Of a DNA stretch of 20,000 nucleotides, positions 1,930-20,000 are shown one piece after another. A program made the translations under genes and the position numbers. The DNA comes from an uncultured virus (IMG/VR IMGVR_UViG_3300008108_000135) (taxonomy: Duplodnaviria > Heunggongvirae > Uroviricota > Caudoviricetes), in the IMG/VR virus record IMGVR_UViG_3300008108_000135; one strand, given 5' to 3'. The notes under the pieces are model-generated. The model had not been told where the DNA came from. It did not search any database and was given only the letters and a program-made list of their open reading frames with translations. Positions within the stretch are counted from its first letter, which is position 1, and each line of letters opens with the position of its first letter.

Positions 1930-1935
1930 ATAACA

Positions 1936-3292: not shown

Positions 3293-3678
3293 TACCATTG
3301 GGGATTTTCATTTTTTAGGTCCACATTGTCTTCTATTATTTTAAGTTTGACACCCCTATCTCTTCCAAATGTAAGTCCCTTAACATAATACTCTAAATGA
3401 AACAATAGATTAGATGTGTCAAAAAATTTAATTGAGTCCAAAACTATATTAACATGAATGTTAACCACCATAATATTTGCACCAGGGTAAGTTTCATCGT
3501 AAATATCAACATTAGTAACCTTAATACTATCAACACTTTCAATATCATCTAAAACACGAGGGTCAACCCAATCAGGAACATTATCAGGACCATCAATACT
3601 AATCAATTCAGACACACACTTATCAATTAATGATTGATATAGATTAACCATTTTATTTTCGGTAATTAATACTTTCAT
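3292..3678 (-). CDS. Hypothetical protein, class A leader (MKVLITENK)
   Basis: 128-aa ORF; TAATG coupling on both sides. Confidence 0.85.
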   Translation of the reverse strand: MKVLITENKMVNLYQSLIDKCVSELISIDGPDNVPDWVDPRVLDDIESVDSIKVTNVDIYDETYPGANIMVVNIHVNIVLDSIKFFDTSNLLFHLEYYVKGLTFGRDRGVKLKIIEDNVDLKNENPQW

Positions 3679-4007
3679 TATGCCTCAACCCTTTTTAAAA
3701 CGTATATTCTAACCTCCCATTTACTTCCATATTCTTGCAAACCTAAACCAAACATAGAATCAAGACCAACCTTGATACTCCCTTTTAACTTCGCAACAAC
3801 ATCATAATTAACCGATTCACCTCCTGTTAAAATATTATGAGGGTCCATTGTAATCTCAATAGTTTTCCTTTGTATTATTTCATCATTACGGCTAGCCAGC
3901 ATAACAGGTTTGGTATTAAAGGAAACGGTAATTACTTCAGGAAATGAAGTTTTAATGAATCGCTCAATTGTCCCTTCTAATCTGTCTTCAGTTATAAGAT
4001 ATTTCAT
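3678..4007 (-). CDS. Hypothetical protein, class A leader (MKYLITEDR)
   Basis: Start re-called at 4007, 5 nt downstream of ATATTTAT (4013-4020); the longer start runs into a terminator. Confidence 0.85.
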   Translation of the reverse strand: MKYLITEDRLEGTIERFIKTSFPEVITVSFNTKPVMLASRNDEIIQRKTIEITMDPHNILTGGESVNYDVVAKLKGSIKVGLDSMFGLGLQEYGSKWEVRIYVLKRVEA

Positions 4008-4029
4008 ATTACATAAATATAATGAAAAT

Positions 4030-4057
4030 AAAAAACCCACCTGTTTGGGGGGTGGGT
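4030..4057 (-). terminator. Intrinsic terminator, CCCACC family
   Basis: ACCCACC...GGTGGGT stem followed by a U-tract on the minus strand, downstream of 4081..4809. Confidence 0.8.
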
Positions 4058-4080
4058 AAATTAAATCATTTTATGTTTTT

Positions 4081-4809
4081 TTAGGGTGTAATAAGTTTTA
4101 AACCATCGGTTGGTAATATAAGTCTATGACTACCACTTTGATTGGTGATACCATCAATTGTAGAGGTACCTCCATTAATCGTGATTGTTAATTTAGTACC
4201 GTCATTTACATATCCTAAAATTGTTTTTTTAAGTTCTTGATATTCGTTAGGATTTATTTTGTGAGTTATTACTTTATCAGTAGATGCCGTTCCTGTAGTC
4301 ACAGGAGTTGCGGGAACATTTTTATTATCCCCTGTTGTAGGGAATTGATGCTGTTCTCTTACTACCCCACCACTTTGGACTTTTTTAGGTAAAATCCATC
4401 CTAATTGTCCTAAACAAACGTTTTTGGGCATATTAACACCAATGTAATTTAAATGACCACAAAATTTTTCAGTTGATGGGACATCACTAAAGTCACCTTT
4501 AAATAAAGTTGCAATATCTTCACCTTTTGATTTTGCGATAGCATCAATTCTACCATACTCATTTTTGTCTTTAATAGAATATAGAGCCTTAAAAAACGCA
4601 TCTTCATTAGTTCCAGCACCTTTAACGGATTGGTATAACAAGTTATATTTTTGTTCGTCGTAATTTTCATTCAGTAACGGTTTAACGTTACCCAACTCAG
4701 ACTCCATTAATGATTTAAAACGTTCAGCATTAATTTTTATTTCCGCACCATATTGTTCAAGAATACCATTCTTTTCTTCATCACTTAAACCGTTTAATAT
4801 ATGTTTCAT
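4081..4809 (-). CDS. Annexin-repeat-containing protein with N-terminal leader
   Basis: LYQSVKGAGTNEDAFFKAL...IATLFKGDFS: GxGT (aa 64-67) followed by exactly 38 residues then D106, matching the annexin type II Ca2+ site pattern. Confidence 0.75.
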   Translation of the reverse strand: MKHILNGLSDEEKNGILEQYGAEIKINAERFKSLMESELGNVKPLLNENYDEQKYNLLYQSVKGAGTNEDAFFKALYSIKDKNEYGRIDAIAKSKGEDIATLFKGDFSDVPSTEKFCGHLNYIGVNMPKNVCLGQLGWILPKKVQSGGVVREQHQFPTTGDNKNVPATPVTTGTASTDKVITHKINPNEYQELKKTILGYVNDGTKLTITINGGTSTIDGITNQSGSHRLILPTDGLKLITP

Positions 4810-4841
4810 AATATTTTTTTTATATAAATATCATTTAAAAT

Positions 4842-4868
4842 AAAAAACCCACCTAAAAAGATGGGGTT
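4842..4868 (-). terminator. Intrinsic terminator, CCCACC family
   Basis: AACCCACCT-AAA-AGATGGGGTT imperfect stem plus U-tract. Confidence 0.7.
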
Positions 4869-4887
4869 AACATAATTTGTTTCGGTA

Positions 4888-5202
4888 TTACATACCTCTT
4901 CTTGTTCTTACTTTAAATGGTCTTTGTTTAACTTCTCTATATTTGTCAAACATTTTTTTACCGTGTTCTCCACGACCAAACCATTTAGTGTCTTCTCCGT
5001 GCTTAGATTCAAAATCTTCAAAGTCCTCAAACTTTTCTTCATCAAAGTCTTCATCACCCATATCATCAAAGCTAGCTCTTCTATCTGATTCATCGTACCA
5101 TTCCTCATCGTCAAATGAACCAAATTTTTTACCTTCATTGATAACTCGTTTAACGATTCTCATCAAATCAGATTCTGTTAATCTTATAACTCTTTTTGCC
5201 AT
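4888..5202 (-). CDS. Small protein with class B leader (MAKRVIRLTESDLMRIVKRVINE), acidic core and basic tail
   Basis: 104-aa ORF; ATATTTAT at 5219-5226. Confidence 0.9.
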   Translation of the reverse strand: MAKRVIRLTESDLMRIVKRVINEGKKFGSFDDEEWYDESDRRASFDDMGDEDFDEEKFEDFEDFESKHGEDTKWFGRGEHGKKMFDKYREVKQRPFKVRTRRGM

Positions 5203-5237
5203 GTTCTATTTTTTATTTATAAATATTATATAAAAAT

Positions 5238-5261
5238 AAAAAACCCACCTGATGAGGTGGG
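5238..5261 (-). terminator. Intrinsic terminator, CCCACC family
   Basis: Perfect CCCACCT-GATG-AGGTGGG stem plus U-tract. Confidence 0.85.
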
Positions 5262-5271
5262 AATTAATACA

Positions 5272-5496
5272 TCATAAGAAATATAACCATTTATCCTCAA
5301 AATGAGGGTAATACTTGGTAAAATTACGATGTCTGTCAATCATGTCATTCAAATCAACACATAAAATGAATGACCACAACAAAACACCAAGATAATCTAC
5401 CTCAATCACAGATTTAATGGTAAACTCCAAACTAATACCAAGTAAGATGAGACCCATAACCCCATACACAAAATATAAAATCAAACTATTTTTCAT
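5272..5496 (-). CDS. Small membrane protein with two hydrophobic segments
   Basis: 74-aa ORF without a leader, preceded by a Bacteroidota-type promoter. Confidence 0.7.
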   Translation of the reverse strand: MKNSLILYFVYGVMGLILLGISLEFTIKSVIEVDYLGVLLWSFILCVDLNDMIDRHRNFTKYYPHFEDKWLYFL

Positions 5497-5500
5497 AAGA

Positions 5501-5532
5501 CAAATATATACAAAATATTTTAACCAAACAAA
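5501..5532 (-). promoter_or_regulatory. Bacteroidota primary-sigma type promoter (-33 TTTG / -7 TAnnTTTG)
   Basis: Minus strand TTTG (5532-5529), 20-nt spacer, TATATTTG (5508-5501), 4 nt upstream of ATG 5496. Confidence 0.65.
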
Positions 5533-6023
5533 GATTTTAATATTTCTTTGTCTTCATCACTCAAAGCATTCCACCATTCATCATTATCAATATCAGGTAA
5601 ACCACCAAAATAAGAGTCATCAGTCATTCCTGATTCCTTACAAATTTTTGTTCCAACACTTTTTAGAATTATATATTCGTCACATTTATGTTTGTACGGA
5701 TTTCTAACATTATTAAACACCACACTATAATTTAAATCAATGTAGTTAGCCGCACTTGTTAGTATTTCTTCAAGATGAGACGGGACATCATACCTACCTT
5801 CATCCCACATTGTATCATCATAACTTAAATCTTTAATCAAAAAAGGTACCTTATCCCCAATAGCATTTACACGAATAACATAATCAGTGGTGTCTCTTGA
5901 TTTGAAGTGGTGTTCATTTACTTTATCAACCTCAAACTTCAAGTCAAGACCATATCTGTCTTTGATAATCTTACTACCAAGAGTATTAAGTATTTTTTCA
6001 ATTGCCGCGATTGGGTGTTCCAT
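5520..6023 (-). CDS. Hypothetical protein
   Basis: 167-aa ORF; ATATTTAT at 6029-6036. Confidence 0.85.
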   Translation of the reverse strand: MEHPIAAIEKILNTLGSKIIKDRYGLDLKFEVDKVNEHHFKSRDTTDYVIRVNAIGDKVPFLIKDLSYDDTMWDEGRYDVPSHLEEILTSAANYIDLNYSVVFNNVRNPYKHKCDEYIILKSVGTKICKESGMTDDSYFGGLPDIDNDEWWNALSDEDKEILKSLFG

Positions 6024-6045
6024 ATATGATAAATATATTATAAAT

Positions 6046-6071
6046 AAAAAACCCCACCTGTGAAGATGGGG
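6046..6071 (-). terminator. Intrinsic terminator, CCCACC family
   Basis: CCCCACCT-GTGA-AGATGGGG stem plus U-tract. Confidence 0.75.
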
Positions 6072-6099
6072 AGTAATAAAGTTTTAATGAATAAAATGC

Positions 6100-6312
6100 T
6101 TACTTCGGACTTTCTACCGTAAGTTGTGATAATGTTGCGGTAACCCCGCCAACCGCGATTAAATAACCACCCAAAGTAACAAGTGCCGCTGGTAATGCAA
6201 CAGGTGCCGCTACCAAAGCCGCTCCAAGAGCTCCCGCAGTTAACCCTACTTTCTGAACTTTTTTCCAAAAGTCAGGGGTCTTAGCATTCCATCTTTCAAA
6301 TAAATTTTTCAT
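6100..6312 (-). CDS. Putative holin-like small membrane protein
   Basis: 70 aa; basic N-terminus (RWNAKTPDFWKKVQK) followed by a long Ala/Gly/Val-rich hydrophobic hairpin; ATATTTAT at 6327-6334. Holin function is inferred only. Confidence 0.6.
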   Translation of the reverse strand: MKNLFERWNAKTPDFWKKVQKVGLTAGALGAALVAAPVALPAALVTLGGYLIAVGGVTATLSQLTVESPK

Positions 6313-6333
6313 AGTTGTTTTTATTAATAAATA

Positions 6334-6693
6334 TCAATAATCTTTAAAATGTCGTTCACCGTTAATATAGTAATAAACTCTACCCACATTAAGTCGGGTA
6401 TTATGAGTAAACCACTCAACAAATATATCAACCCAATTTGCACCAAAAGTTTGAGTTAAGGTATTTGACACCCTACCAAAAATCCATAATGTGTCCTCCT
6501 CATTATTATTCTTATTCAAAGACCAATATTCATAAGCACCATCCCCATCAATATCAAAGTCAATTGCCCCGAATTTATCCATCATATTACGATAATCAAT
6601 TGCCTTTTCAAAACCACCATCAGGGGTATATAGACTATCAAGATAAGATTTGACAGCTAAAGTATATTTGGATTCTGTTATTATTAATTTCAT
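6334..6693 (-). CDS. Hypothetical protein, class A leader (MKLIITESK); paralog of 10207..10560
   Basis: YLDSLYTPD...GAIDFDID...NWVDIFVEWFTHNTRLNV aligns with YLDLKFYPD...GDINFYVN...KWVPVVTKWFEQNTGLKV. Confidence 0.9.
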   Translation of the reverse strand: MKLIITESKYTLAVKSYLDSLYTPDGGFEKAIDYRNMMDKFGAIDFDIDGDGAYEYWSLNKNNNEEDTLWIFGRVSNTLTQTFGANWVDIFVEWFTHNTRLNVGRVYYYINGERHFKDY

Positions 6694-6704
6694 ACTAATA
6701 TATA

Positions 6705-7493
6705 TTATACAAAGGCGGATATAATATCATCTATTGATAATCCAATAGGGGGTAATCCCAAAAGTTCAATTACTTTTGATTCCGAATAAGTTCTATTCAT
6801 ATAATCACCAATAACTTTATTACCATCTCTATTTTGATATAGTAGGTTTTTTTCATTGGTTTTGATTAGATATAATGGTCCATACTTATTAATATAGACA
6901 TCCAAAATACGAGGATTTATTAGATTATCAAATTCTATTGGTAAATCATATCTATCATTAATTCTTTCAATCATACCTGTTAAGTCAACACCCAACCTGT
7001 CAATGATAAGATTTTTTAATTTTGATTCAATTAAAAAACTTTCTTTAATGTTCTTTTTCTTCTTAACATTATATTTGTTCGTTTTACTAGTATAAAAAGC
7101 ATTTTCATCATCGCTTTGGCCAGGGTCATGAATAAAGTCATAATCATACTGAACACAATCGCATTTAATACCAAGTTCATCGTATACATACTGAACCAAA
7201 ACCTTTGAGAATAACTTTGTTTTAAACAACGGAATAAATCTCTCCAACATATGAGAAAACTCACCATCCAAAGTTAAATCTCTTTTACATCCTTCGTTTG
7301 CCATGGTGGGAGGAAACCATATTGTCATTGGTGAAATATCGTCAAGGATATTACTTTTACCATAAATATATATTGATTGTATCGTTCTTTCATCATTTTC
7401 ATACATATTCTCGTATCTTAACTCACCCAAAATAGTTTTTAGGAGTTTATACGCCACATTCTTATATTGTTTTTTTGTAATTACGACTTTCAC
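6705..7493 (-). CDS. Two-part hypothetical protein, class A-like leader (MKVVITKKQ)
   Basis: GTG start 4 nt downstream of ATATTTAT (7498-7505); internal KKKKNIKESFLIESK junction. Confidence 0.85.
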   Translation of the reverse strand: MKVVITKKQYKNVAYKLLKTILGELRYENMYENDERTIQSIYIYGKSNILDDISPMTIWFPPTMANEGCKRDLTLDGEFSHMLERFIPLFKTKLFSKVLVQYVYDELGIKCDCVQYDYDFIHDPGQSDDENAFYTSKTNKYNVKKKKNIKESFLIESKLKNLIIDRLGVDLTGMIERINDRYDLPIEFDNLINPRILDVYINKYGPLYLIKTNEKNLLYQNRDGNKVIGDYMNRTYSESKVIELLGLPPIGLSIDDIISAFV

Positions 7494-7510
7494 AATAATA
7501 AATATCTCCG

Positions 7511-7861
7511 TTACCTAAACTTATCTTGAATTCTATTGACGAGATGTTTCCTTGCAACATTCATAAAATAATCTTGCACAATATCGGGGGGAACCATATT
7601 AAATGGTGTTATGTCGTGTGGACTAGGCCAAGATACATTAATTCCTTTCTCAGGGATATTACCTTTTTTATCAATATAAAAGACATATTCAATCCTTCTT
7701 TTACGGCCTTCAATATTAAACCAAAGATACACCACATAGTATTCTCTACGCATTGTATCTTCGTTCTTATATCCATACTCAGGTGTGACCTCAATATTAC
7801 CAATCTCTAGTAACCTGTCAATGATTTCTTTAGATGTTTTTTCTGTAATTAGGACTTTCAT
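7511..7861 (-). CDS. Hypothetical protein, class A leader (MKVLITEKT); paralog of 11961..12314 and of the N-domain of 8312..9664
   Basis: Start re-called at 7861 after GTATTTAT (7867-7874); shared IExxxEYG...YxxVxxWF...FxxxPxxxVxxYF pattern. Confidence 0.85.
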   Translation of the reverse strand: MKVLITEKTSKEIIDRLLEIGNIEVTPEYGYKNEDTMRREYYVVYLWFNIEGRKRRIEYVFYIDKKGNIPEKGINVSWPSPHDITPFNMVPPDIVQDYFMNVARKHLVNRIQDKFR

Positions 7862-7882
7862 ATATGATAAATACAATCTTTA

Positions 7883-8251
7883 TCAAAAATTACCTTCGTA
7901 TGTAAAATTGGTTGTTAGATTTTTTTCTTTCACGCTAACAACAAAATCAAGATGGGCCATAAACTGACATAACAAATCTCTAATTGATGATAGGTCCTCC
8001 TCAATGACATGTGTTAATTTTTCTTCACCGTCCACAATTTTATAGAATTTGTATCTTGGAGTAAAATCCATTGGACTGTAAAATATCTTCCATTCTTCGT
8101 TAATTTGGACATCATATATTACCCTATTATCTATTTTGGTAACTGAATTATAAAGAAGGTGGTTATAGTCGGACTTTGTAACGGTGCAGGTCAATCCCTT
8201 ATAAAGAGATTCAAACAACTTCTTAATCATTGGTATGTTTTTATCTTCCAT
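7883..8251 (-). CDS. Hypothetical protein without leader
   Basis: 122-aa ORF preceded by TATCTTTG. Confidence 0.8.
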   Translation of the reverse strand: MEDKNIPMIKKLFESLYKGLTCTVTKSDYNHLLYNSVTKIDNRVIYDVQINEEWKIFYSPMDFTPRYKFYKIVDGEEKLTHVIEEDLSSIRDLLCQFMAHLDFVVSVKEKNLTTNFTYEGNF

Positions 8252-8255
8252 AAAA

Positions 8256-8263
8256 CAAAGATA
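8256..8263 (-). promoter_or_regulatory. Bacteroidota-type -7 element TATCTTTG
   Basis: 4 nt upstream of ATG 8251; no clear -33 TTTG. Confidence 0.5.
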
Positions 8264-8280
8264 TAAAATTAATATGAAAT

Positions 8281-8304
8281 AAAAAACCCACCTGATGAGA
8301 TGGG
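8281..8304 (-). terminator. Intrinsic terminator, CCCACC family
   Basis: CCCACCT-GATG-AGATGGG stem plus U-tract, directly after the stop of 8312..9664. Confidence 0.8.
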
Positions 8305-8311
8305 ATATTTT

Positions 8312-9664
8312 TTATAATGCAATTTTAACCTGTGATTTTAAATAATCAGATTGTTGTACAATTTTTGTTAACAATTTTTTATACTCGGTTGGGTTTTTTG
8401 AAGATAGAATGTCAAAATGTTCTTTCACGAATTTTTCATCATAACCCAAAAGTTTTTTCATGTTAGGTGTTATATCTTTTTTAACACCTTTACCCCAATT
8501 AATTATATCGTCCAAAGTTTTAATGGTCACCTCTTTACCTAAACTTTTCATATATTTTTTTGTATTAGTACTAATACCATTTAATATTTTGGAGGTATTA
8601 GCAACAAGTTCTCTTGGGTGAAAATAATATGAGTTAGAAAAATATTCATCACTATATCTTTTAGTACCTGATTTATATTTTTTCATTAATTTTGAACTAA
8701 CGGATGATGGGTCTTTAATATGTGCCAATTCATGATAGAACAATTGGTCAATATCGGTAGGTGACATTTTCTTTACGTTATCTATACTAAACAATAAATA
8801 ATCATCCACCGCAAACCCGTAGCTACTACGGTAATTTTCACCCCACCATCTAACGGCATCATCAGATGTTATAAATAATACAGGGACATTTTTAACACCC
8901 GTCTTTGTTGTAACCTTTACTGAATGTCGTAATGGTTTAATATATTTCCTTAAAGTTAATGCTTTAGTTGCGGATGATGGTATATTTTTTACTTGTGAAG
9001 TTATTTTATGAATTTGAGATATTTCATCTTTAGTAAATTTAACCCCAAATTTAGAAACAAAATTCGCCATATTAGGTTTTGCGGTTTTTGAGGACTCTAA
9101 AGAACTCAAAAATTTCTTCCTATCAATTTTTTTACTTAAAAAACTTTGCACAAGTTTATCATATGATTCTTTACCAAATCTTTTAATATAAATCGGTTTT
9201 AACGTATTAACATAACTTAATATTGGTTTTGTTTCTTTAGTACCTCTAGAAAATAATTTTAAGAAATCCCCCAATACACCTTCGTTAATATTATCATCGG
9301 TAACCCACCATTTTGGGTTGCGACGCCTTTCCTCATACATATCCTCAAGAAATTGTCTTGTTTTCTTAATAAAATAACCATTGACAATATCTTTAGGGAG
9401 AAATGAAAACTCATCTATTGTCCGAACATCATCATAATAATCAAGTTTACCAATATTATCCACACCACGAACAACATACCAATAACGAAATGGCAATTTA
9501 AATTTACGACCATTAATGGTGAACCAAATATTAACACCATCATAAACTCTCCCGACAACATCATAAGTTTTTGCGCCATATTCAATTTCGTACTCAATGT
9601 TCTTCATCTTCAGGAGTTTCTCCATCGCACCACTTGTCTGTTCTTCTGAGATAATAATCTTCAT
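8312..9664 (-). CDS. Multidomain protein: class A leader, paralogous N-domain, basic region, zincin-like metallopeptidase domain
   Basis: Start re-called at 9664 (MKIIISEEQ), 4 nt after ATATTTAT (9669-9676); HELAH at 8720-8734 and a downstream Glu in YYFHPRELVAN. Confidence 0.8.
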   Translation of the reverse strand: MKIIISEEQTSGAMEKLLKMKNIEYEIEYGAKTYDVVGRVYDGVNIWFTINGRKFKLPFRYWYVVRGVDNIGKLDYYDDVRTIDEFSFLPKDIVNGYFIKKTRQFLEDMYEERRRNPKWWVTDDNINEGVLGDFLKLFSRGTKETKPILSYVNTLKPIYIKRFGKESYDKLVQSFLSKKIDRKKFLSSLESSKTAKPNMANFVSKFGVKFTKDEISQIHKITSQVKNIPSSATKALTLRKYIKPLRHSVKVTTKTGVKNVPVLFITSDDAVRWWGENYRSSYGFAVDDYLLFSIDNVKKMSPTDIDQLFYHELAHIKDPSSVSSKLMKKYKSGTKRYSDEYFSNSYYFHPRELVANTSKILNGISTNTKKYMKSLGKEVTIKTLDDIINWGKGVKKDITPNMKKLLGYDEKFVKEHFDILSSKNPTEYKKLLTKIVQQSDYLKSQVKIAL

Positions 9665-9790
9665 ACCAATAAATATATCATAAAATAAATCGCGGCGGGC
9701 GGGGACCAAAAGAAAAACGACCGAAGGTCGGACACGGTGAACGAAAATTTATCTTTTTTCTCCTTTTTTATTCCAAAATTATATAAGCAT

Positions 9791-9818
9791 AAAAAACCCC
9801 ACTTATGATGAGGTGGGG
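9791..9818 (-). terminator. Intrinsic terminator, CCCACC family
   Basis: CCCCACTT-ATGATG-AGGTGGGG stem plus U-tract. Confidence 0.75.
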
Positions 9819-9841
9819 ATTTAATTTAATTCAAAAATTAT

Positions 9842-10153
9842 TTAAAATTCATCTTCATTACCAAGAATATCCTGAATATCGGCCCCATAATAATCAGTAA
9901 TATAGTTTGCCAATAGCTCAGGTAAATCAAATCGTTTTAATCTACCCAAAATTTCTTCGGACAAATCCATTGCCATGTCTCTCATAGATTCATCATAACC
10001 ATCATAATCGTTAAGAACGTCCTTAACCTCTCTAAATATATCTTGTACAGTAATGGTTATAGATGAGCCTCCCATTTCATCATCATCTTCTTTAATAACT
10101 CGTTTAACGATTCTTTTTAAATCTGATTCTGTTAATCTTACAACTTTTTTCAT
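9842..10153 (-). CDS. Very acidic small protein with class B leader (MKKVVRLTESDLKRIVKRVIKE)
   Basis: 103-aa ORF; ATATTTAT at 10170-10177. Confidence 0.9.
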   Translation of the reverse strand: MKKVVRLTESDLKRIVKRVIKEDDDEMGGSSITITVQDIFREVKDVLNDYDGYDESMRDMAMDLSEEILGRLKRFDLPELLANYITDYYGADIQDILGNEDEF

Positions 10154-10206
10154 AATATCTTTTTTAATAATAAATATATTGTATTAATAAAAACTCCCAC
10201 ATTATA

Positions 10207-10560
10207 TCAATCATTCTTAAATGCATCAGCTTTTAAATCGTCATCATAATAACTTGTCCAATCAACCTTAAGTCCCGTGTTTTGTTCAAACCATTTTGTA
10301 ACCACGGGAACCCACTTATTGTGAAACAATCTATTAAGGTCTTGACTCATTTCATTAAATACCATTAATGATTTTCCATCACCCCAATCTGTGTAATAAT
10401 ACATCCGTTCATCATTAACATAAAAATTAATATCCCCATGTTTATTAACTTCTTCTCTATAATAATCATCACCAACCCAATTATAGTCGGGGTAAAATTT
10501 TAAATCAAGATATCTAATGATTCCTTGTTCGTACTTAGATTCAGAGATGATTACTTTCAT
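10207..10560 (-). CDS. Hypothetical protein, class A leader (MKVIISESK)
   Basis: Start re-called at 10560; ATATTTAT at 10565-10572; paralog of 6334..6693. Confidence 0.9.
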   Translation of the reverse strand: MKVIISESKYEQGIIRYLDLKFYPDYNWVGDDYYREEVNKHGDINFYVNDERMYYYTDWGDGKSLMVFNEMSQDLNRLFHNKWVPVVTKWFEQNTGLKVDWTSYYDDDLKADAFKND

Positions 10561-10581
10561 AATGATAAATATACTAAAAAT

Positions 10582-10610
10582 AAAAAACCCCACCTGTTAG
10601 GGTGGGGTTT
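10582..10610 (-). terminator. Intrinsic terminator, CCCACC family
   Basis: AAACCCCACC-TGTTAG-GGTGGGGTTT stem plus U-tract. Confidence 0.85.
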
Positions 10611-10632
10611 CAAAGAATATCTTATAAAACAT

Positions 10633-11184
10633 TTAACGAATATTTCTTATCTCACCAGTGGTGGCGTTATATTCATATTTATTTTTATTATCAATGGTCA
10701 CAATAACATATGGTGGTTCAATTTGGGTACTATAATTATAAGAGTCCAATTCTGGATTAATTTCCTCAATTTTTTTCAATATATAATTTTCCATCCATTC
10801 TTCCAATTCCCCATGCAAGATTTCCCTTTGTATTGTATTTTTTATGGAATTACCAATTTTTTTAAATGGTTTTTTAACAGCATCCCATATTTTACCTTCA
10901 CCAAGCTCTGATTCAAGGTCTTTTGAGTTTATCTTATTTAAAGCCCATTTCTTTAAATTATGTGCAACATCTTCATCAGCGGTTGCTCGTGAATAATTGC
11001 TAACAAATCTAATTTGTTTGTCCTCATCCATGGAATTAAAGTCAATGTCTTTACCAAGTTCAGTTCTAAGAACATCATTCATAAAATCAGAGACCTCCTC
11101 ATCAGACCAAATATTTGATTCTTTAATAACCCTTCTAACAATACGAGTTAACTCTGATTCTGTTAATCTTACAATCTTTTTCAT
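10633..11184 (-). CDS. Hypothetical protein with class B leader (MKKIVRLTESELTRIVRRVIKE)
   Basis: 183-aa ORF; ATGA overlap with upstream gene. Confidence 0.9.
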   Translation of the reverse strand: MKKIVRLTESELTRIVRRVIKESNIWSDEEVSDFMNDVLRTELGKDIDFNSMDEDKQIRFVSNYSRATADEDVAHNLKKWALNKINSKDLESELGEGKIWDAVKKPFKKIGNSIKNTIQREILHGELEEWMENYILKKIEEINPELDSYNYSTQIEPPYVIVTIDNKNKYEYNATTGEIRNIR

Positions 11185-11492
11185 TTTTTACATTTATTTT
11201 TTTTAAATCTTCTTATTTTTGCGCCACAAAGATTAAATTCGTCAGACCTTTCAGCATCTTCTTGAGCGGAAAAAGCTCTATTTAATAAATTCCATTTGTC
11301 TTCCATATTATTTATTTTACCACATTCAGAATCTTTAATATTTTCAACCTCTTTATATAAAGATTTAATTTCACCCATAAATTCACCGTGATTCATTTTA
11401 GCATATTTATGATGAGGTTTTTCATTTTCACTAATCACTCGTTTAACGATTTTCATCAAATCTGATTCGGTTAATCTTATAACTTTTTTCAT
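11181..11492 (-). CDS. Small protein with class B leader (MKKVIRLTESDLMKIVKRVISE)
   Basis: 103-aa ORF; ATATTTAT at 11507-11514. Confidence 0.9.
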   Translation of the reverse strand: MKKVIRLTESDLMKIVKRVISENEKPHHKYAKMNHGEFMGEIKSLYKEVENIKDSECGKINNMEDKWNLLNRAFSAQEDAERSDEFNLCGAKIRRFKKNKCKK

Positions 11493-11542
11493 ATTAATTT
11501 TTATTTATAAATATTAGGTAAAAACAAAAAACGGGGGACTAA

Positions 11543-11959
11543 TTAACTACGAACAAACTTATCGGTAGAATAATCATCAATCACTTGTTTAATGGGATAA
11601 TCATATGTTGATTCAAACCAAACCTTTAATAAATCATTAAACTTAGAACCAAACATTTCCAACATAGATTTAAAAGAATATTTAGAATAAATTAATAGCG
11701 GTGTTTGGAAACCATCAACAGGTTCGTTGTATGGGGGGTTCTCAGCATACTGAAATACCCAATCGTCATCTTCCCACCAACTATTATTATCATCATTATC
11801 ATCAATATTATAAAAATTAAGCGGGGAGTAATCAATATAAGTATTCTTATTATAATCATAATAGTCATAATCCCTTTCATGTTCATATAAATTAGCAAAC
11901 TCTAACATCATACTGTTGAATAGGGACTGTAATTTATCTTCCGTAATTAATACTTTCAT
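11543..11959 (-). CDS. Acidic hypothetical protein, class A leader (MKVLITEDK)
   Basis: Start re-called at 11959; C-terminal MFG...LLKVWFESTY motif shared with several ORFs in the window. Confidence 0.85.
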   Translation of the reverse strand: MKVLITEDKLQSLFNSMMLEFANLYEHERDYDYYDYNKNTYIDYSPLNFYNIDDNDDNNSWWEDDDWVFQYAENPPYNEPVDGFQTPLLIYSKYSFKSMLEMFGSKFNDLLKVWFESTYDYPIKQVIDDYSTDKFVRS

Positions 11960-11960
11960 C

Positions 11961-12314
11961 TCAATCGTCAAAATTTATTATTGGTAATAACTTATCCAAA
12001 TAAACTCTTGCTCTCTCAATAAAGTAACCATTAACAAGTTCCCTGGGGATGGATTCAAACTCATCTGTAATGCTAGCAAGGTCACCATGACTTACCATCT
12101 TAATGATATAATCCTTTTTTGTTTTGAAGGTTACCAATCTTGAATGCTCGTAAATTTGATTGGGATATTTAAACCAAACATTAACAACATCGTATTGTCC
12201 ACCATCAGTGCTATAAGACCTAAGCCCATATTCATAATGAATCTCAATACCCCTCTTGTTAAGGATACCCTCAATCATTTTATCTCTATTTGATTCGTTA
12301 AGAATGATTTTCAT
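11961..12314 (-). CDS. Hypothetical protein, class A leader (MKIILNESN)
   Basis: 117-aa ORF; ATATTTAT at 12321-12328; paralog of 7511..7861. Confidence 0.9.
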   Translation of the reverse strand: MKIILNESNRDKMIEGILNKRGIEIHYEYGLRSYSTDGGQYDVVNVWFKYPNQIYEHSRLVTFKTKKDYIIKMVSHGDLASITDEFESIPRELVNGYFIERARVYLDKLLPIINFDD

Positions 12315-12337
12315 ATACAGATAAATATAATGAAAAT

Positions 12338-12369
12338 AAAAAACCCCCTACATAAAAGAGGGGGTTTTT
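12338..12369 (-). terminator. Intrinsic terminator, possibly bidirectional
   Basis: AAAAACCCCCT-ACATAAAAG-AGGGGGTTTTT. Confidence 0.8.
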
Positions 12370-12823
12370 ATTCACAAACTTCTTTAAGTAACTTTAAATA
12401 TAAATCTAAAGATAAGTCATTTTTTGAAATGTTTACAAATTTTGTAACTACAATGGTATTTTCCTTAGTATATCCAATATCGCTATCTAATCTATCTAAA
12501 GATAAACTATACCAATCTTTCTCATTCATTGAAATTGGTTTTTTGGATATAAAACATTTTCCGTCTTGGGATTTTAATTTCTCAACAATATCATCATCAG
12601 TTATCTCAAACACAAACCCCTTTCTCGTTGCTCTATGTTTGGCACTCATAACTCTATAATGTATTAGATTATTTGACCTCCACTCCTTTTGTTTTTTTAT
12701 ATACTCATCTTTATCCCCCCTATTTTTATATTCTTTAGAGAGACAAACTTTACACTTGTTTTTTCTTTTAGGGTAAAAGTTATAAATTTCACTATCCCCA
12801 CATATTACACAACTATATCCCAT
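12368..12823 (-). CDS. HNH/beta-beta-alpha-Me-like endonuclease with N-terminal CxxC...CxxC zinc motif (homing-endonuclease-like)
   Basis: Start re-called at 12823 (MGYSCVIC...CKVC); SAKHRATRKGFVFEIT...QDGKC...SLDRLDSDIGYTKENTIVVTKFVNISK fits the DRxDxxxGYxxxN...NxxK pattern. Confidence 0.75.
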   Translation of the reverse strand: MGYSCVICGDSEIYNFYPKRKNKCKVCLSKEYKNRGDKDEYIKKQKEWRSNNLIHYRVMSAKHRATRKGFVFEITDDDIVEKLKSQDGKCFISKKPISMNEKDWYSLSLDRLDSDIGYTKENTIVVTKFVNISKNDLSLDLYLKLLKEVCE

Positions 12824-13012
12824 ATTTATAAATATCTTAGATAGTGAAAAAAACACAATGTTTTTTTTTTAATATTCCACATTTTTCATCCAGAAATTTT
12901 TTTTTTACATATGGACCCCTTTTCCCTTTTTCAGATTTTTACCCCAAAAATTTTTTTTTGGTTTTTCAGAAAAAATTTATATAAATGTTTTTTTACCCAT
13001 ACGTTTTGTTTA

Positions 13013-14394: not shown

Positions 14395-14435
14395 ACCTAT
14401 AAATATAGGTTTTGGTACATATAAATCAATCATAT

Positions 14436-14494
14436 ATTGTTCATAACTTTTTACCCTGACACTATGACAGGAGGGAATTGTTGATAACTTTTTA
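14436..14494. repeat. 18-bp direct repeat with DnaA-box-like core
   Basis: ATTGTTCATAACTTTTTA (14436-14453) and ATTGTTGATAACTTTTTA (14477-14494); core reverse complement TTAT[GC]AACA resembles TTATCCACA. Confidence 0.6.
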
Positions 14495-15247
14495 TGTTAA
14501 ATTTCTTGATTTTGACAAAATGTCATGTTTGTTTGATGATGGGGATAATCCCCTCGTTAGGAAATTCACTCCCACTTCTTCCCACAATTAATGAAAACAT
14601 AACACTGAATTCTTAGTTCCTGATAGTGTAAGGACCAATTTTTCCCCTCTGTAGGGGTCTGTAGGTCCAGTTTTTTAACTATATATAAAACCCAGCAAAT
14701 TATTATACTTATGGTACATAGAGCGGGGAAACACTTTAGTGTGTTAGAGATGACCATAGATAAACCTTCAACGGACCACTTATGTGGGAAAAAGTGGTAG
14801 ACAATATGACAGACACCTCATCAGATTATAATATATAAAGTTATTATCTATATCATATTAAACAGGTTAAACCTGACTACAAAGATATAATTAATAACTT
14901 ACTAAAGGGGGATTATATGTTTAAACATACATTAAACACCTATGGTGTTCTTTTATATGTTATTAAGTATAATCCCCATCATACGGAACTCATCTAATCT
15001 ATAATTTGTCTATAGTATAATGGGGGACATCTTATTAGACCACACATTTAAATGGGGGGATTATTGTGTAAACTATTTATACATTATAACCTAATATAGT
15101 TATATCATATGTTTATAACCTTATTTGGTTATAGTTGTTTATATTAAGGTAAAGATTACTCTCGTCACTGAACATAATAGTATAGGATAAAATTATGAAC
15201 GAGGAAATGTAGTGAATGAAATGAACGGTAATGGACGAGTGAGTGAT

Positions 15248-15806
15248 TTAATCGTATACTCTTATGTCAATAATAAACCACTCACCATTAAAGTCCTCCA
15301 CTAAACAAGTGGAGTTCTCACAAAAGTCTCCTGAGTTCATATAGTCTTTATCTAACTTGGGTTGGTGTATATGTCCACATACTGAAACATCATATCCCTT
15401 TTGTTTTGTTAGATAACCATCTTACTTTCATTATAACAAAATCTAATACATCCCCATGAAAACAAAAATACTTTCTTCCGTCTAATCCTATATGGACATA
15501 CTTCCTTACAATCTCAATATTATTCATCTTAAATGGAACGAATGGTTTTAAGAAATCATCATGGTTTCCCCTTATATAAATTACCTTTGTCCCATTCTCA
15601 CTTCTCTTCATAAACCTTCTGAATATCTTGGAACATTCTTTATTCCATTTCCCTTTTGATTTTAATGCCCAACCATCTATAATATCCCCATTAAGAATTA
15701 ATATGTCTGATTCATTCTCCTCTAAAAAACTTAGTATCTTCTTTGTTTGTGATTGTCTTGCTCCTAAATGTAAATCACTCATTATTATTGTTCTCCACTT
15801 TTTCAT
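15248..15806 (-). pseudogene. LpxH-like (UDP-2,3-diacylglucosamine hydrolase family) metallophosphoesterase, split by a frameshift with an apparent internal deletion
   Basis: First frame (15806-15390) has DLHLG, GDIID, GNHD and HGD. The missing C-terminus LTKQKGYDVSVCGHIHQP...YMNSGDFCENST...RVYD* is in a shifted frame at 15412-15248. Confidence 0.85.
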
Positions 15807-16507: not shown

Positions 16508-16607
16508 ATCTATAACTATGGGGTTTCTACTTGAATCTACATTATCATAACGCTAAATCTATGTAAACAAAAAAACGAGAGTGAGTGATAGGGTTATATT
16601 ATTTCAC

Positions 16608-16615
16608 TATATTTG
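16608..16615 (+). promoter_or_regulatory. Bacteroidota-type -7 element TATATTTG
   Basis: 6 nt upstream of ATG 16622; no clear -33 element. Confidence 0.5.
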
Positions 16616-16621
16616 TATATT

Positions 16622-17002
16622 ATGGATAATGTAAAAACCTTAATATCAAACTGTGGTTGGGAAAGTGCCAAATCTTTGCTTGGTGCTGAATACTTGGTTA
16701 ACCGTGTATGTAATAATAACCCATTGGTATTCTTATCATTTTATTATGACCCAAACCCCACCGAGATTCCTGAATACAACAACAGAGTTGTGTTTACATG
16801 TCAATCAACTGATAAAACCGTTTTTTTTCTATATAAAAAAGGAAATGAGGTTAGTGCTAGTAATGACTTAATAATGGAGGTTTTGAGAAATGATTTTGGA
16901 TTAACTAATATGGAAGATATATACTTGGTAATCAAAGAATGGTTTAAGAAAATGTATAATGTGAATGTGAGTAGTGTTAGGCACTTTCATGCTTTGTTTT
17001 AA
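16622..17002 (+). CDS. Hypothetical protein; paralog of 17736..18158 lacking the leader
   Basis: Start re-called at 16622; LISNCGWESAKSLLG...PLVFL...FGL...IKEWFKKMYNV. Confidence 0.85.
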   Translation: MDNVKTLISNCGWESAKSLLGAEYLVNRVCNNNPLVFLSFYYDPNPTEIPEYNNRVVFTCQSTDKTVFFLYKKGNEVSASNDLIMEVLRNDFGLTNMEDIYLVIKEWFKKMYNVNVSSVRHFHALF

Positions 17003-17014
17003 TCCCTCTATCTT

Positions 17015-17383
17015 ATGAATGATAAACTATTATATCTAATTAAATCTCAGGGTTGGCGTGTTGCCTCTAATATGGTTGGTGGTCCTGATGTTCTCTTTAA
17101 GTTATTGGATATAACCCCCACGAAGTTTCTGCATTCATTTAATGGTATGGGACAATCTTTTCCATCAGGTGATGTTACCTCATATGGTGAATGCTCTGGG
17201 TGTTGTTTATTTTTACATGATACAATGGATAATCTTTGTTTCATTAGTTATGAGGAAATATGGTCACTGTTTGAATATGGTTTTATGTTAACTTATAAGG
17301 AAACTCAAGAGATAACTAAACAATGGTTGTATGAATCTTATAACATAGATGTAGTTAGAACCAATTACTTTCGTAGGAACTAA
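17015..17383 (+). CDS. Hypothetical protein; paralog of 17736..18158 lacking the leader
   Basis: LIKSQGWRVASNMVGG...PTKFLHSF...ISYEEIWSLFE...TKQWLYESYNI. Confidence 0.9.
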   Translation: MNDKLLYLIKSQGWRVASNMVGGPDVLFKLLDITPTKFLHSFNGMGQSFPSGDVTSYGECSGCCLFLHDTMDNLCFISYEEIWSLFEYGFMLTYKETQEITKQWLYESYNIDVVRTNYFRRN

Positions 17384-17423
17384 TTCCCCTCGCTGTTTTG
17401 TATTTGATAATATTTATCATTAT

Positions 17424-17708
17424 ATGGAGAAACAATTGGAAAGCTTGGTTAGGAGAATTATATTTAAGAAATTCCCCTCTTTGACCTCAGTTGAGGTTTC
17501 AGAATCATGGGGTTCATATACATGTATGATAACTTCTGATGAATGTTTATCCATGAAAGAAGAAATGGAGATTGATACCGAAGTTAAGTTTTTATTAAAG
17601 ATGCTTTCCCCCGATTCTATTAAACATTTTAAAGAATCTAATGTTAGATGTTTCTTTGATTGTGGTAAAGGATTTGAATTTCATTCTACTCAAGGTTATA
17701 ATCATTAA
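17424..17708 (+). CDS. Hypothetical protein
   Basis: 94-aa ORF; ATATTTAT at 17410-17417. Confidence 0.85.
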   Translation: MEKQLESLVRRIIFKKFPSLTSVEVSESWGSYTCMITSDECLSMKEEMEIDTEVKFLLKMLSPDSIKHFKESNVRCFFDCGKGFEFHSTQGYNH

Positions 17709-17735
17709 TTCCCCCTCGCAATATATTTATATCAT

Positions 17736-18158
17736 ATGAAAGTTATTATAACCGAAAACCAAAAAGAAAAGATGTTAAGAAACCTAATCAAAAAGGATGG
17801 GGTTGTGTTCACATCTAATATGGTTGGTGGAATTGAGAATCTTTTTGATGTGTTAAATATTAAAAGTCCGATGGATTTCCTTCATTTATTTGATGACTTG
17901 GAACAAGTTCAATCAGAACAACGTGAAGATTTGATTTTATTCAGGTATAAACCAAATTATAACCTTATGATTTACGTTACAAAAAATGAAACTGTTTACA
18001 TAGATTATGATGAAATATGGTCATTTTTGGAAGACAAGTTTGGACTGAGTTATGAGGAAACACGAGCATTTACAAAGAAATGGTTGGATAATGTCTATAA
18101 TTTTAGGGGAATCACAACAAATGAATTTCAGGATGCTTACCACTCACGTATTGGGTAA
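17736..18158 (+). CDS. Hypothetical protein, class A leader (MKVIITENQ); C-terminus encoded by a repeat/spacer array
   Basis: 140-aa ORF; ATATTTAT at 17723-17730. Confidence 0.9.
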   Translation: MKVIITENQKEKMLRNLIKKDGVVFTSNMVGGIENLFDVLNIKSPMDFLHLFDDLEQVQSEQREDLILFRYKPNYNLMIYVTKNETVYIDYDEIWSFLEDKFGLSYEETRAFTKKWLDNVYNFRGITTNEFQDAYHSRIG

Positions 18159-18238
18159 GGTATAGAATTTAAGGGGGGTCACAACAATAAACACCTTGGG
18201 CTATGTCTCCAGACCAATTGTCTGAGGTATACAATTTA
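18084..18238 (+). repeat. Repeat-spacer array: 37-bp degenerate repeats separated by 30-bp unique spacers (period 67)
   Basis: R1 18084-18120 TTGGATAATGTCTATAATTTTAGGGGAATCACAACAA; R2 18151-18187 TTGGGTAAGGTATAGAATTTAAGGGGGGTCACAACAA (30/37 identical to R1); truncated R3 18218-18238 TTGTCTGAGGTATACAATTTA. Confidence 0.85.
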
Positions 18239-18240
18239 TT

Positions 18241-18396
18241 TTAATCCTCATCAGGTTCATCTGACATATAATCCACAGAATAACAATTAAAACATTGGGA
18301 TGGTTCTAATTTGGGGTTTTCAGGTCTAACTAATATCTCATATGTACGACCACAATCCTTACATATTTTATTTGTCAATATAAATTCACTATCCAT
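18241..18396 (-). CDS. Small zinc-ribbon protein (51 aa)
   Basis: Below the ORF-track size range; hand-translated MDSEFILTNKICKDCGRTYEILVRPENPKLEPSQCFNCYSVDYMSDEPDED (CxxC-19-CxxC); overlaps the upstream gene by 8 nt. Confidence 0.75.
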   Translation of the reverse strand: MDSEFILTNKICKDCGRTYEILVRPENPKLEPSQCFNCYSVDYMSDEPDED

Positions 18397-18712
18397 TGTA
18401 TAAATGCTCAATATACTTCTCCGTGATTCGTGGTGAAAAGTAATTCATTAGTGAATCATAAATATAATTATAATCAAAGTCAACTTTACCCCAATCAGAT
18501 AACGCTCCGTGAAATATATCCATCAATGTTGATACTATCTTTCGTTTAAACTTTTCTAATGATAAATCACGATTCCTAACTGATTTTATCTCAAAATTAA
18601 TCAACATGTTAAAATCATGCTCAATCTCTCTAAGACTAATTCTCCTTTTAAGATATAATGGTAAACCCGTCTCTTCTCTTAATATTCTTCTTATGGATTC
18701 TTGTAGGTTCAT
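18389..18712 (-). CDS. Hypothetical protein, class C leader (MNLQESIRRILREE)
   Basis: 107-aa ORF. Confidence 0.9.
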   Translation of the reverse strand: MNLQESIRRILREETGLPLYLKRRISLREIEHDFNMLINFEIKSVRNRDLSLEKFKRKIVSTLMDIFHGALSDWGKVDFDYNYIYDSLMNYFSPRITEKYIEHLYNG

Positions 18713-18713
18713 A

Positions 18714-19145
18714 TTAACAATCTCCTATACCGTAAAATACACAATCAACAATTTGACTGTCATCTTTATCAAAGATATAAACATAGGAATCTCTATTATT
18801 TATTCTATCGTAACATAATCTATGATGGCCATCTATTATGTATAATTTATTTTTATATTTGAACAAACTAATATCAGATTTATTGTATCTTTCATCGTCC
18901 ATTCTTTTTACGTATTCTATATCAAACTTTTCTTGAACTGAATATACTGTAATGTCTTTTGGTAATAATTCTTTTTCTAATTGAGAAACTTCTATCAATT
19001 CATCAATTTCATTAACCACCATATCCCACAGATTTGAAAACCTATCTAATTTACTAAAATGTTCTGGGACATACATAATATTACAGTCACCCCTATTATT
19101 TAGTTCTTCTCTTAATATTCTTCTTATGGATTCTTGTAGGTTCAT
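18714..19145 (-). CDS. ParB/Srx-like domain protein, class C leader
   Basis: DISLFKYKNKLYIIDGHHRL matches the ParB/Srx DGHHR motif. Confidence 0.75.
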   Translation of the reverse strand: MNLQESIRRILREELNNRGDCNIMYVPEHFSKLDRFSNLWDMVVNEIDELIEVSQLEKELLPKDITVYSVQEKFDIEYVKRMDDERYNKSDISLFKYKNKLYIIDGHHRLCYDRINNRDSYVYIFDKDDSQIVDCVFYGIGDC

Positions 19146-19630
19146 TTATCTCTTAATATTCGTTTAACTATTGGGTTGGAGAAGAATCTCTCAATATCTC
19201 TTTTAACTTTACCTGTATTACAAAATCTATTGTTAAAGAACATCTCAGGTATTTCATCTGATTCCTCCGTCCACATGTTTAATTCATATTCTTCAGAAAC
19301 CATTGGTAATTGTCTATCATACCAATCATCCATTCTCTTTTCCGCCTTATCAAATGTGGTAAACCCATTTGAATCTAACAACATGTCATCAATCTTAATA
19401 TATACATGAAGTAAGTAATCCTGCTCAACCTCATCCGTGTCCTTATCAACCTCGTTTGCTAGTAATAGATAGTAATTCACCTTTCTGTTGGGGAAACGCT
19501 TTCTAATCTTACCTATGATGTCGTATGCAAAGTAATGACAATATCCATATTGATAATCATATTTCCCCTCGTTCCATTTGGACTCAAGTGTTTCCCTTAA
19601 TATTCTTCTTATGGATTCTTGTAGGTTCAT
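19142..19630 (-). CDS. Putative papain-like/transglutaminase-fold protein, class C leader
   Basis: GYCHYFA ... LHVYIK ... LLDSNG gives a Cys-His-Asp order; ATATTTAT at 19636-19643. Confidence 0.6.
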   Translation of the reverse strand: MNLQESIRRILRETLESKWNEGKYDYQYGYCHYFAYDIIGKIRKRFPNRKVNYYLLLANEVDKDTDEVEQDYLLHVYIKIDDMLLDSNGFTTFDKAEKRMDDWYDRQLPMVSEEYELNMWTEESDEIPEMFFNNRFCNTGKVKRDIERFFSNPIVKRILRDK

Positions 19631-19642
19631 ATTTTATAAATA

Positions 19643-20000
19643 TCAAACATTTCTCGTATGAAAATCGGTAAGTATATAGAATACCTGGTCTAAAATATCC
19701 GTTGGTAGGTCTTCATAATATAGAACAAAGACATATGTATCACCCATTTCATTATCATAATTATCTTCTTCGTAACTATATACTGAAACATCTTCAGGAT
19801 ATAAATGTTCTATTTGTTTAACTATACCATTCTCCTTACTCATTACTATTGGTTCTTCATTTATATCACCAAGAGGTATATATTGCCAACCAAGTATTTC
19901 TAAATGCTCAACCAATATTTCCTTAATAATCATTATCTTATTATTCTTATTGTTAAGAAAGTCTTTACCTAATATATTAAGAAGTTTTGATATTCCTCCC
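19643..20000 (-). CDS. Acidic hypothetical protein, 5' end beyond the window; paralog of 2810..3292
   Basis: Frame stays open upstream of the listed ATG to the window edge (GGISKLLNILGKDFLNNKNNKIMIIKEIL), aligning with GGYDNFITLLPDYFDSRESKIDLIKEII. Confidence 0.8.
   Translation of the reverse strand, partial: GGISKLLNILGKDFLNNKNNKIMIIKEILVEHLEILGWQYIPLGDINEEPIVMSKENGIVKQIEHLYPEDVSVYSYEEDNYDNEMGDTYVFVLYYEDLPTDILDQVFYILTDFHTRNV

Follow-up and report, generated by a model that had tools for sequence, protein, structure and literature searches.

The 20,000-nt stretch of the uncultured virus record IMGVR_UViG_3300008108_000135 (IMG/VR; Caudoviricetes) analysed here, hereafter the window, carries at the 3′ end of a gene for a 140-amino-acid (aa) protein (17736..18158, + strand) a short repeat–spacer array (18083–18239) that resembles a CRISPR array of type VI-B, the Cas13b type. 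We interpret it as part of a protein-repeat module that is shuffled by recombination, an explanation that we hold to be evenly balanced between right and wrong. The repeats would then represent, in reduced form, the C-terminal module of a large superfamily of jumbo-phage proteins. In these proteins a constant motif of 12 residues (36 nt) forms the end of the last helix of a small folded domain, and 10 variable residues (30 nt) come next; the resulting 66-nt unit is repeated from one to about 17 times and closed by a partial unit reading ...NLK*. In two sister groups of proteins, subfamilies B and C, the whole array is translated in frame. In subfamily A, to which the window gene belongs, the first unit alone would be reliably translated, variable pieces of 29–31 nt shifting the frame towards stops that the next repeat supplies (one shifted frame meets a TGA, the other a TAA, and frame 0 the ...NLK* end). 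Homologous recombination between the 23–36-nt repeats of tandem paralogues would make the arrays grow and shrink and would swap their tails, and the distal part of the window array (repeat R2, spacer 2 and repeat R3) would be the remnant of an event that removed the body of a downstream paralogue.

A repeat scan of the window gave a direct repeat of 37 nt (18084–18120 and 18151–18187; 81% identity, spacing 67), and inspection of the sequence added a partial third copy starting at 18217. Numbered in a 36-nt register, with all parts on the + strand, the array opens with R1 (18083..18118), a full 36-nt repeat with a GTTG start and a CAAC end that lies inside coding sequence. It continues with spacer 1 (18119..18149; 31 nt, translated as NEFQDAYHSR(I)), the full-length but decayed R2 (18150..18185; ATTG start), spacer 2 (18186..18216; 31 nt, reading INTLGYVSRPI in frame 0 of R2) and the 23-nt terminal repeat R3 (18217..18239; ATTG start), which ends after position 23 and reads LSEVYNLF* in its own frame. 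The sequence-only reading that drew attention to this site had described repeats alternating with two unrelated spacers, and this description stands, the two spacers being mutually unrelated. The gene product (subfamily A) has a folded domain, followed by the WLDNVYNFRGITT motif that R1 encodes and by a tail of 12 aa that comes from spacer 1 and the start of R2; as had been proposed, the open reading frame (ORF) ends ...WLDNVYNFRGITT-NEFQDAYHSRIG at a TAA held by R2. The translation of R2 and spacer 2 is LGKV*NLRGVTTINTLGYVSRPIV*, with a TAG in R2's own frame 0 that had likewise been pointed out, and five of the seven differences between R1 and R2 do fall at third codon positions. Both periods of the window array are 67 nt, and its units are not all in one frame. 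Cas families were absent from the window ORFs (34 compared with Pfam and PHROGs, 30 with PADLOC), in agreement with the earlier statement that no cas gene is present; Rfam gave no window match at gathering score, and scans of the window found no terminator after R3, no tRNA and promoter-like sites at chance level.

The same architecture recurs throughout the family. At least 394 clusters, all unnamed, are homologous to the 140-aa protein, and related contigs hold 40 distinct subfamily A arrays with 56 distinct spacers, 53 of which are 29–31 nt long (one spacer in 28 arrays, two in six and three in six). A family homologue precedes the array in frame in 39 of the 40, the fortieth being the inner part of a longer array, which answers in the affirmative the earlier question whether such arrays always follow homologues of this gene. 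Protein matches end at residues 126–130, equivalent to the end of R1, in all nine IMG/VR loci and in 20 of 30 metagenome loci, and 11 IMG/VR stretches with proteins only ~50–64% identical share a 20-nt core of the repeat without a single change. The last repeat ends after ...ACAATTTAA, at position 23, in 37 of the 40 arrays, usually with a same-strand gene directly after it. The truncation of R3 had been attributed to the end of the convergent gene, a small ORF outside the module whose stop abuts R3 (18241..18411, − strand), and this attribution does not survive the comparison. Apart from two orthologous pairs, each one base apart, the 56 spacers are mutually unrelated. One irregular subfamily A array in the relative G004 (L105:12504–12620 = L007:3348–3510), whose duplicated unit comprises the 3′ part of the repeat plus the spacer with a period of 72, shows that other duplication registers occur.

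Tail lengths were counted over 93 homologues and tail endings read by eye from the listing. Tails of 12 aa, many ending ..VG, occurred in 46 (corresponding to a period of 67), tails of 16–17 aa, many ending ..WMRSTI, in 20 (period of 65), and a few ended ..LDEVYNLK (period of 66); to judge from their sequences, the tails are spacer read-through into the next repeat. Divergence among the repeats is codon-periodic, with 27 of 47 differences between full downstream repeats and their own R1, and 45 of 71 differences between cut repeats and their own R1, lying at frame-0 third codon positions. This excess indicates that the downstream copies derive from coding gene ends.

In the sister subfamilies the whole array is translated. 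A subfamily B ORF of G004 (L104:3648..4514, + strand; 288 aa), first spotted as a weak match of the Cas13b-repeat covariance model described below, contains ten repeats, each of the nine periods being exactly 66 nt; none of the nine spacers has an in-frame stop (P = 0.0005, shuffling), and the protein ends VEETLNLK*, the cut repeat in frame. A 440-aa subfamily B protein of the relative G002 (L041:14215–15537, − strand) has about 16 units, and a 468-aa subfamily C protein of the relative G005 (L108:15349–16755, − strand) has about 17, of the form VEDTIQNGVK... Subfamily B comprises 99 homologues of 158–342 aa, in which 181 of 186 intervals of 21–23 residues are exactly 22. The hypervariable 10-residue cassettes are common to several genomes in differing order, NETFQARPNW, AHFESKSLFR and KSLNFPNGLA, for example, recurring at different positions in different B proteins. 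Remote homology links the N-terminal domains of A and B (hhalign E 4e-4, 65 columns). Against the Cas13b-repeat model the B copies scored 15.3, 7.1 and 5.5 bits or less, and C was unmatched; the 36+30-nt translated unit therefore exists without likeness to the Cas13b repeat.

A recombination junction lies within the window array itself. In an orthologous locus (L054; protein 79% identical) the DNA is ~98% identical to the window from ~17860 to GAATTTAA of R2, and the two part exactly after GAATTTAA. Beyond the junction L054 has the usual cut-repeat end and then the start of the next paralogue, and in the window the remaining 3′ part of a full repeat is followed by spacer 2 and R3. The first 23 nt of R2 are the cut repeat of L054, and spacer 1 differs from its counterpart there at one of 31 nt. 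The spacer-2 tail of the window is, in turn, the expressed first tail of two homologues, P0028 (KNTLGYVSRPVV) and P0022 (RNTLGYDSKPVV). The simplest reading of these sequences is that a cut repeat recombined with the full repeat belonging to a downstream paralogue, an event that would have deleted the body of that paralogue. On this comparison, recombination inside the repeats does move tails between genes.

The protein-repeat reading explains the link to one gene family, the in-frame sisters, the codon-periodic divergence, the junction inside a repeat and the cut last repeat, which becomes the natural ...NLK* end. We infer that the arrays are the work of recombination alone and not of CRISPR machinery, and that their likeness to Cas13b repeats is coincidental or secondary. 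Several observations weigh against this interpretation. The first period is 66 nt in only 16 of the 40 subfamily A arrays, and downstream repeats that are out of frame remain ~94% identical to R1 (47 differences in 23 repeats). Codons that are otherwise not preferred persist in R1 (TTG 0.96, GAG 0.95, AGG 0.95), the gene body preferring TTA, GAA and AGA and an array-less paralogue CTT, GAA, TAT and GTT, and the G+C content of the spacers is 0.37 versus 0.31 for the window. The subfamily B array is unfolded in its AlphaFold2 (AF2) model (predicted local distance difference test (pLDDT) score of about 30, residues 90–288), yet its variable pieces are almost constant in length. Finally, the interpretation has to treat two things as coincidences: that subfamily A repeats resemble those of Cas13b, and that the relative G003 has a genuine VI-B array.

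The strongest alternative takes this likeness at face value: the subfamily A repeats would be a mimic or derivative of the VI-B direct repeat, present on a phage mRNA that is abundant and multi-copy. The host's Cas13b would bind there, cut behind R1 and behind every further full repeat, and take up harmless guides (sense-strand gene sequence or the phage's own spacers). Much as with extraneous CRISPR RNA or an RNA anti-CRISPR, the host's real guides would be diluted, and the letters of R1 would be under a second constraint from their coding role. We regard this as a serious possibility that is nevertheless somewhat improbable. The portion of the description of VI-B loci that we draw on gives repeats of 36 nt with GUUG...CAAC ends and spacers of 30 nt (10.1101/092577). 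A two-copy pattern derived from the phage repeat matched 15 stretches in 13 bacterial records, all of them Bacteroidota CRISPR arrays (Chryseobacterium, Bergeyella, Capnocytophaga, Riemerella and one Bacteroidales genome), and 11 of the 12 large ORFs neighbouring the matched arrays are Cas13b (NF038190). As the pattern fixes 15 of the 36 positions, an unbiased repeat set was made via a Cas13b search, which found the protein in three of 401 genomes (phylum) and seven of 401 (order), and nine repeats adjoining cas13b were aligned and turned into a covariance model. Judged by eye, 13 of the 15 columns that are invariant among the Cas13b-linked repeats recur in the phage repeat. Its identity to the pattern-selected bacterial repeats is at best 25 of 36 (15 positions being fixed by the pattern); it is 20–26 of 36 to the repeats found via Cas13b and, by eye, 26 of 36 to the G003 repeat. 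In 413 kb of phage DNA, the gene-embedded repeats rank directly below the G003 array as full-length matches on the coding strand (12–27 bits, compared with 44–48 for the true array). R1 is the top match in the window (19 bits, E 0.011; next 12.1), these E-values being rough and the apparent significance inflated by a finding that was chosen for its CRISPR look; R2 and R3, which begin with ATTG, were undetected by the model.

That Cas13b is relevant to such phages is also suggested by G003 itself, which has a genuine VI-B-type array (L048:17690–18084, − strand, at ~117.7–118.1 kb) of six 36-nt repeats (44–48 bits) and 29–30-nt spacers. Its last repeat ends after position 23, as in the window, a terminator hairpin is present, and the array lies 110 nt downstream of a TnpB-like ORF (L048:18195–19442; OrfB_IS605 plus a Cas12f-like TNB domain). 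By pattern, arrays of this type occur on only three IMG/VR contigs, and the G003 repeat is, among IMG/VR contigs, confined to G003. The mimic explanation would further account for the near-identity of the out-of-frame repeats and for the non-preferred codons kept in R1. Shine-Dalgarno motifs before start codons are not enriched in these phages (8 of 149, 1 of 97 and 0 of 12 genes, against a background of 0.04–0.05). Start codons without Shine-Dalgarno motifs are a pattern best known from Bacteroidota; the lack of enrichment would fit Bacteroidota but does not amount to a host assignment. Two published observations point the same way, as far as the parts of these papers used here go: an unblocked first repeat gives rise to an extraneous CRISPR RNA (crRNA) that can reduce Cas13b defence (PMC13187072), and a survey of viral solitary repeats lists all CRISPR types except type VI (PMC10651486). 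Full-text searches, which did not extend to preprint supplements that may list cases, gave no paper on a phage-borne type VI repeat or on this protein family.

On the other side, the 36+30 geometry is that of a translated protein repeat in the sister subfamilies, and the codon-periodic divergence has no counterpart in an RNA pairing pattern: positions 5–7, the partners of 29–31, vary without compensation (by eye), variants break the terminal pairing, and about nine of the 40 arrays end in ACC rather than AAC (by eye). Single repeats had folding energies no better than those of shuffled sequences (z −0.5 to −1.7). The 28 arrays made of one spacer and a cut repeat would be unable to make a VI-B guide. 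No cas13b was found in five related phage records (15–64% complete), with a control search that recovered it in five of five bacterial genomes, and it is absent from the 187 kb of G003. Rfam at its E-value threshold matched no array; since the genuine one in G003 was also missed, Rfam appears to hold no usable VI-B repeat family and its silence is uninformative. The earlier suggestion of a CRISPR-derived array is sustained as regards a measurable likeness to VI-B repeats and a relative with a true array; the geometry, however, is shared by a translated 22-residue protein repeat in the sister subfamilies, and neither a cas13b (in the five partial phage records) nor a sound protospacer was found.

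The sources of the spacers bear on this point. All 56 spacers and the six of G003 gave only chance matches of 11–17 nt in 0.8 Mb of related and local sequence, and GenBank phages contained no spacer match for a six-array locus. Three gene-embedded spacers were searched in IMG/VR as exact 21-mers. The spacer 1 core and a spacer of another locus (L077) had no exact match, and the core of spacer 2 had one (L097:989–1019 in G778, a 44-kb record of an unrelated phage; 21 nt exact, 25 of 31 overall). This match is antisense to an ORF for a DNA-ejection protein, and its flanks by eye fit published Cas13b flanking rules. However, Shine-Dalgarno sites precede 16 of 32 G778 genes (background 0.13), and its terminase, nearest to those of Pelagibacter phages, is 64% identical to one of them; G778 therefore probably infects another host, and this sole candidate protospacer is ambiguous, may be a chance match and was not counted. 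A genuine G003 spacer matched only itself in IMG/VR, so that blank 21-mer searches say little. Among assembled contigs of RNA libraries, one of 177 nt covers 18175–18350, and contigs of this kind are silent on ends, processing and R1/R2 joints.

The protein-repeat and mimic explanations are not exclusive, as R1 could serve both as codons and as decoy. A bolder proposal, which we offer tentatively and think rather unlikely, makes subfamily A the first phage-borne mimic of a type VI repeat, set in the codons of a multi-copy gene. Each transcript would, in the manner of an extraneous crRNA, give Cas13b a dummy guide, blunting RNA-targeting immunity. Bolder still, the units of the whole superfamily could derive from a captured VI-B array; with 36+30 nt amounting to whole codons, such an array could be read as protein, a CRISPR array thereby turning into coding sequence.

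The arrays could also be scars of ectopic spacer integration, an origin that we consider very improbable. Host Cas1–Cas2 serving VI-B in trans would have mistaken the gene end for a repeat and inserted ~30-bp spacers into replicating phage DNA, duplicating the repeat; the part of the report on VI-B loci that is relevant here describes spacer uptake in trans (PMC8209922). The narrow range of spacer lengths (29–31 nt in 53 of 56), the lack of relatedness among spacers beyond the two orthologous pairs, their G+C content above that of the phage and the match of repeats within an array to their own R1 are in keeping with such an origin, as is one pair of loci in which L071 has one extra gene-proximal unit relative to L061 and its first two repeats are identical. 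Integration would, however, duplicate a whole repeat, yet in all but three of the 40 arrays the final copy stops at position 23; the B and C units are in frame, with repeats hardly like those of Cas13b; plain recombination explains the sharing of cassettes and the junction between the window and L054; and neither the related and local sequence nor the GenBank phages yielded a source for the spacers.

A programmed switch, with silent C-terminal cassettes kept downstream and moved onto the gene by repeat–repeat recombination so as to vary the protein within a population, is in our view slightly less probable still. It had been among the ideas of the sequence-only reading, and part of it stands: the tails vary widely among homologues with a conserved body, the spacer-2 tail of the window is expressed elsewhere, and recombination within the repeats moves tails. 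What lacks support is the maintained store. Frame-0 stops occur in seven of 17 later spacers, as often as in the other two frames, and in nine of 39 first spacers, contrary to the expectation of stop-free spacers; as the later spacers are not kept open, nothing points to silent cassettes being kept in store. R2 moreover carries its in-frame TAG, and the 28 single-spacer arrays would have nothing stored. The repeats are direct, and direct repeats delete irreversibly, so that recombination between them gives deletion only and no reversible switch. Tails are stable within orthologue groups (NEFQDAYHSRIG or NQFQDAYHSRIG throughout P0001–P0012, down to 74% identity), and no R1/R2 deletion joint was found among the contigs of four runs (contigs only). 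A one-off decayed duplication or chance repeat, suggested by the window copies being only 81% alike with the third partial, is refuted by 40 distinct arrays of the same architecture with conserved spacer length on many contigs and by the 20-nt core that stays exact in 11 IMG/VR stretches despite ~50–64% protein identity, and its probability is negligible.

Among known systems, shufflons and the gene shuffling of T4-type phages offer a parallel to the protein-repeat module, in that short repeats at gene ends mediate the exchange of C-terminal segments or of small genes. The present arrays differ in that no dedicated recombinase was seen and the repeats are direct, not inverted, leading to deletions or unequal exchanges. 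The VI-B arrays of Bacteroidota share the 36-nt GTTG...CAAC repeat with a U-rich middle, the diverse ~30-nt spacers and repeats that are co-directional with transcription, and that of G003 shares the cut last repeat; here, in contrast, the first repeat consists of codons for a structured protein end, cas13b is not nearby, most arrays have one spacer plus a cut repeat, periods are 65–67 instead of strictly 66, and sister arrays are translated. The solitary repeats, mini-arrays and RNA anti-CRISPRs (Racrs) of viruses are, in the sections of that survey consulted (PMC10651486), likewise cas-less phage repeats, sometimes full plus partial, with a proposed role in competing for Cas proteins; Racrs are described there as small non-coding RNAs with their own promoter, none of type VI, whereas the present repeats, which would be putative competitors at most, lie within an mRNA and a reading frame. 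The extraneous crRNA of Cas13 arrays is comparable in that R1 following arbitrary sequence would make such a guide, and guides of this kind are reported to be able to deplete real crRNAs and weaken Cas13b defence; in the part of the paper at hand it is a by-product suppressed by a host leader hairpin (PMC13187072), and a phage that makes it on purpose would be a step beyond. 'False CRISPRs', in the excerpt available (PMC5294841), include a cas-less repeat–spacer pattern overlapping a protein-coding gene, which here is translated in the sisters, but they are defined by a lack of spacer diversity, unlike the 56 distinct spacers found here, with lengths matching one CRISPR subtype.

The 140-aa protein is confidently modelled by AF2 (pLDDT 88.6), and the residues encoded by R1 lie within the confident fold, residues 117–128 forming the end of a helix (106–121) and part of a strand (127–131). 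W116, L117, V120, Y121, L123, G125 and T127 are invariant or nearly so among homologues. The A and B domains both fold confidently in AF2, each ending in a helix that bears the first constant motif. The 140-aa protein gave no notable sequence match in the PDB, no Foldseek match (best E 0.3) and no Pfam, PHROG or PADLOC family, and the Atlas returned viral hypothetical clusters only; the best VIA-align hit (Z 4.5 over 40 residues) resembles helix-turn-helix domains. One guess would be a protein that interacts with the host or acts against it and whose tail is disordered and multivalent.

Two paralogues without arrays lie in tandem upstream of the gene on the + strand, one of 122 aa that ends WLYESYNIDVVRTNYFRRN* (17015..17383; 38% identical to the product of 17736..18158) and a more distant one of 129 aa (16613..17002; 23%). 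Their C-terminal motifs use AT-rich synonymous codons, compared with the GC-richer ones of R1, and the nearer paralogue (17015..17383) was unmatched by the Cas13b-repeat model.

The window as a whole has ~31% G+C and is crowded with small unannotated ORFs. Record G001 is the same phage over positions 1–12856 of the window, with the first 19 window ORFs at 99–100% identity; the array region lies outside G001. Two records are more distantly related, G002 (126 kb) and G003 (187 kb; completeness estimated at 64%), the latter with homologues for 12 of 32 window ORFs. Both encode a T4-type major capsid protein, portal and terminase, and these sequences point to tailed jumbo phages of about 300 kb; one homologue of the 140-aa protein is encoded on a 310-kb contig. 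GenBank phages gave no DNA match to 16600–19700 and no protein match.

Downstream of the array, three consecutive and otherwise unrelated genes on the − strand (18389..18712, 18714..19145 and 19142..19630) all begin with the peptide MNLQESIRRILRE, and two of them have in common an identical 41-nt stretch (18672–18712 and 19105–19145), the summed depth of which was extremely high in two sequencing runs (1648 and 3019). Many genes of related loci begin MKxLIR[KR]ILKEE, and the stretch has the look of a widely shared 5′ end or N-terminal module. Elsewhere in the window, ~950 nt between oppositely oriented gene blocks (14434–15389) have no ORF of at least 100 aa; there are two ORFs of 40–63 aa at the left edge, 14758–15389 has none of at least 40 aa, the G+C content of the 13–15 kb region is slightly higher (0.35–0.36), and neither a tRNA nor an Rfam family was found at 14434–15389.

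If the protein-repeat interpretation is true, these genes constitute an unannotated and abundant phage superfamily (at least 394 A clusters and 99 B homologues) with a constant/hypervariable tail, the cassettes of which are shuffled between genomes, and they illustrate clearly how CRISPR finders would take a coding repeat for an array. If, instead, the Cas13b interpretation is true, the subfamily A repeats would fill the type VI gap in the survey of viral repeat mimics, with a decoy RNA hidden in a reading frame. Either way, such phages meet hosts with Cas13b, as is shown by the related jumbo phage and its genuine VI-B array without cas genes.

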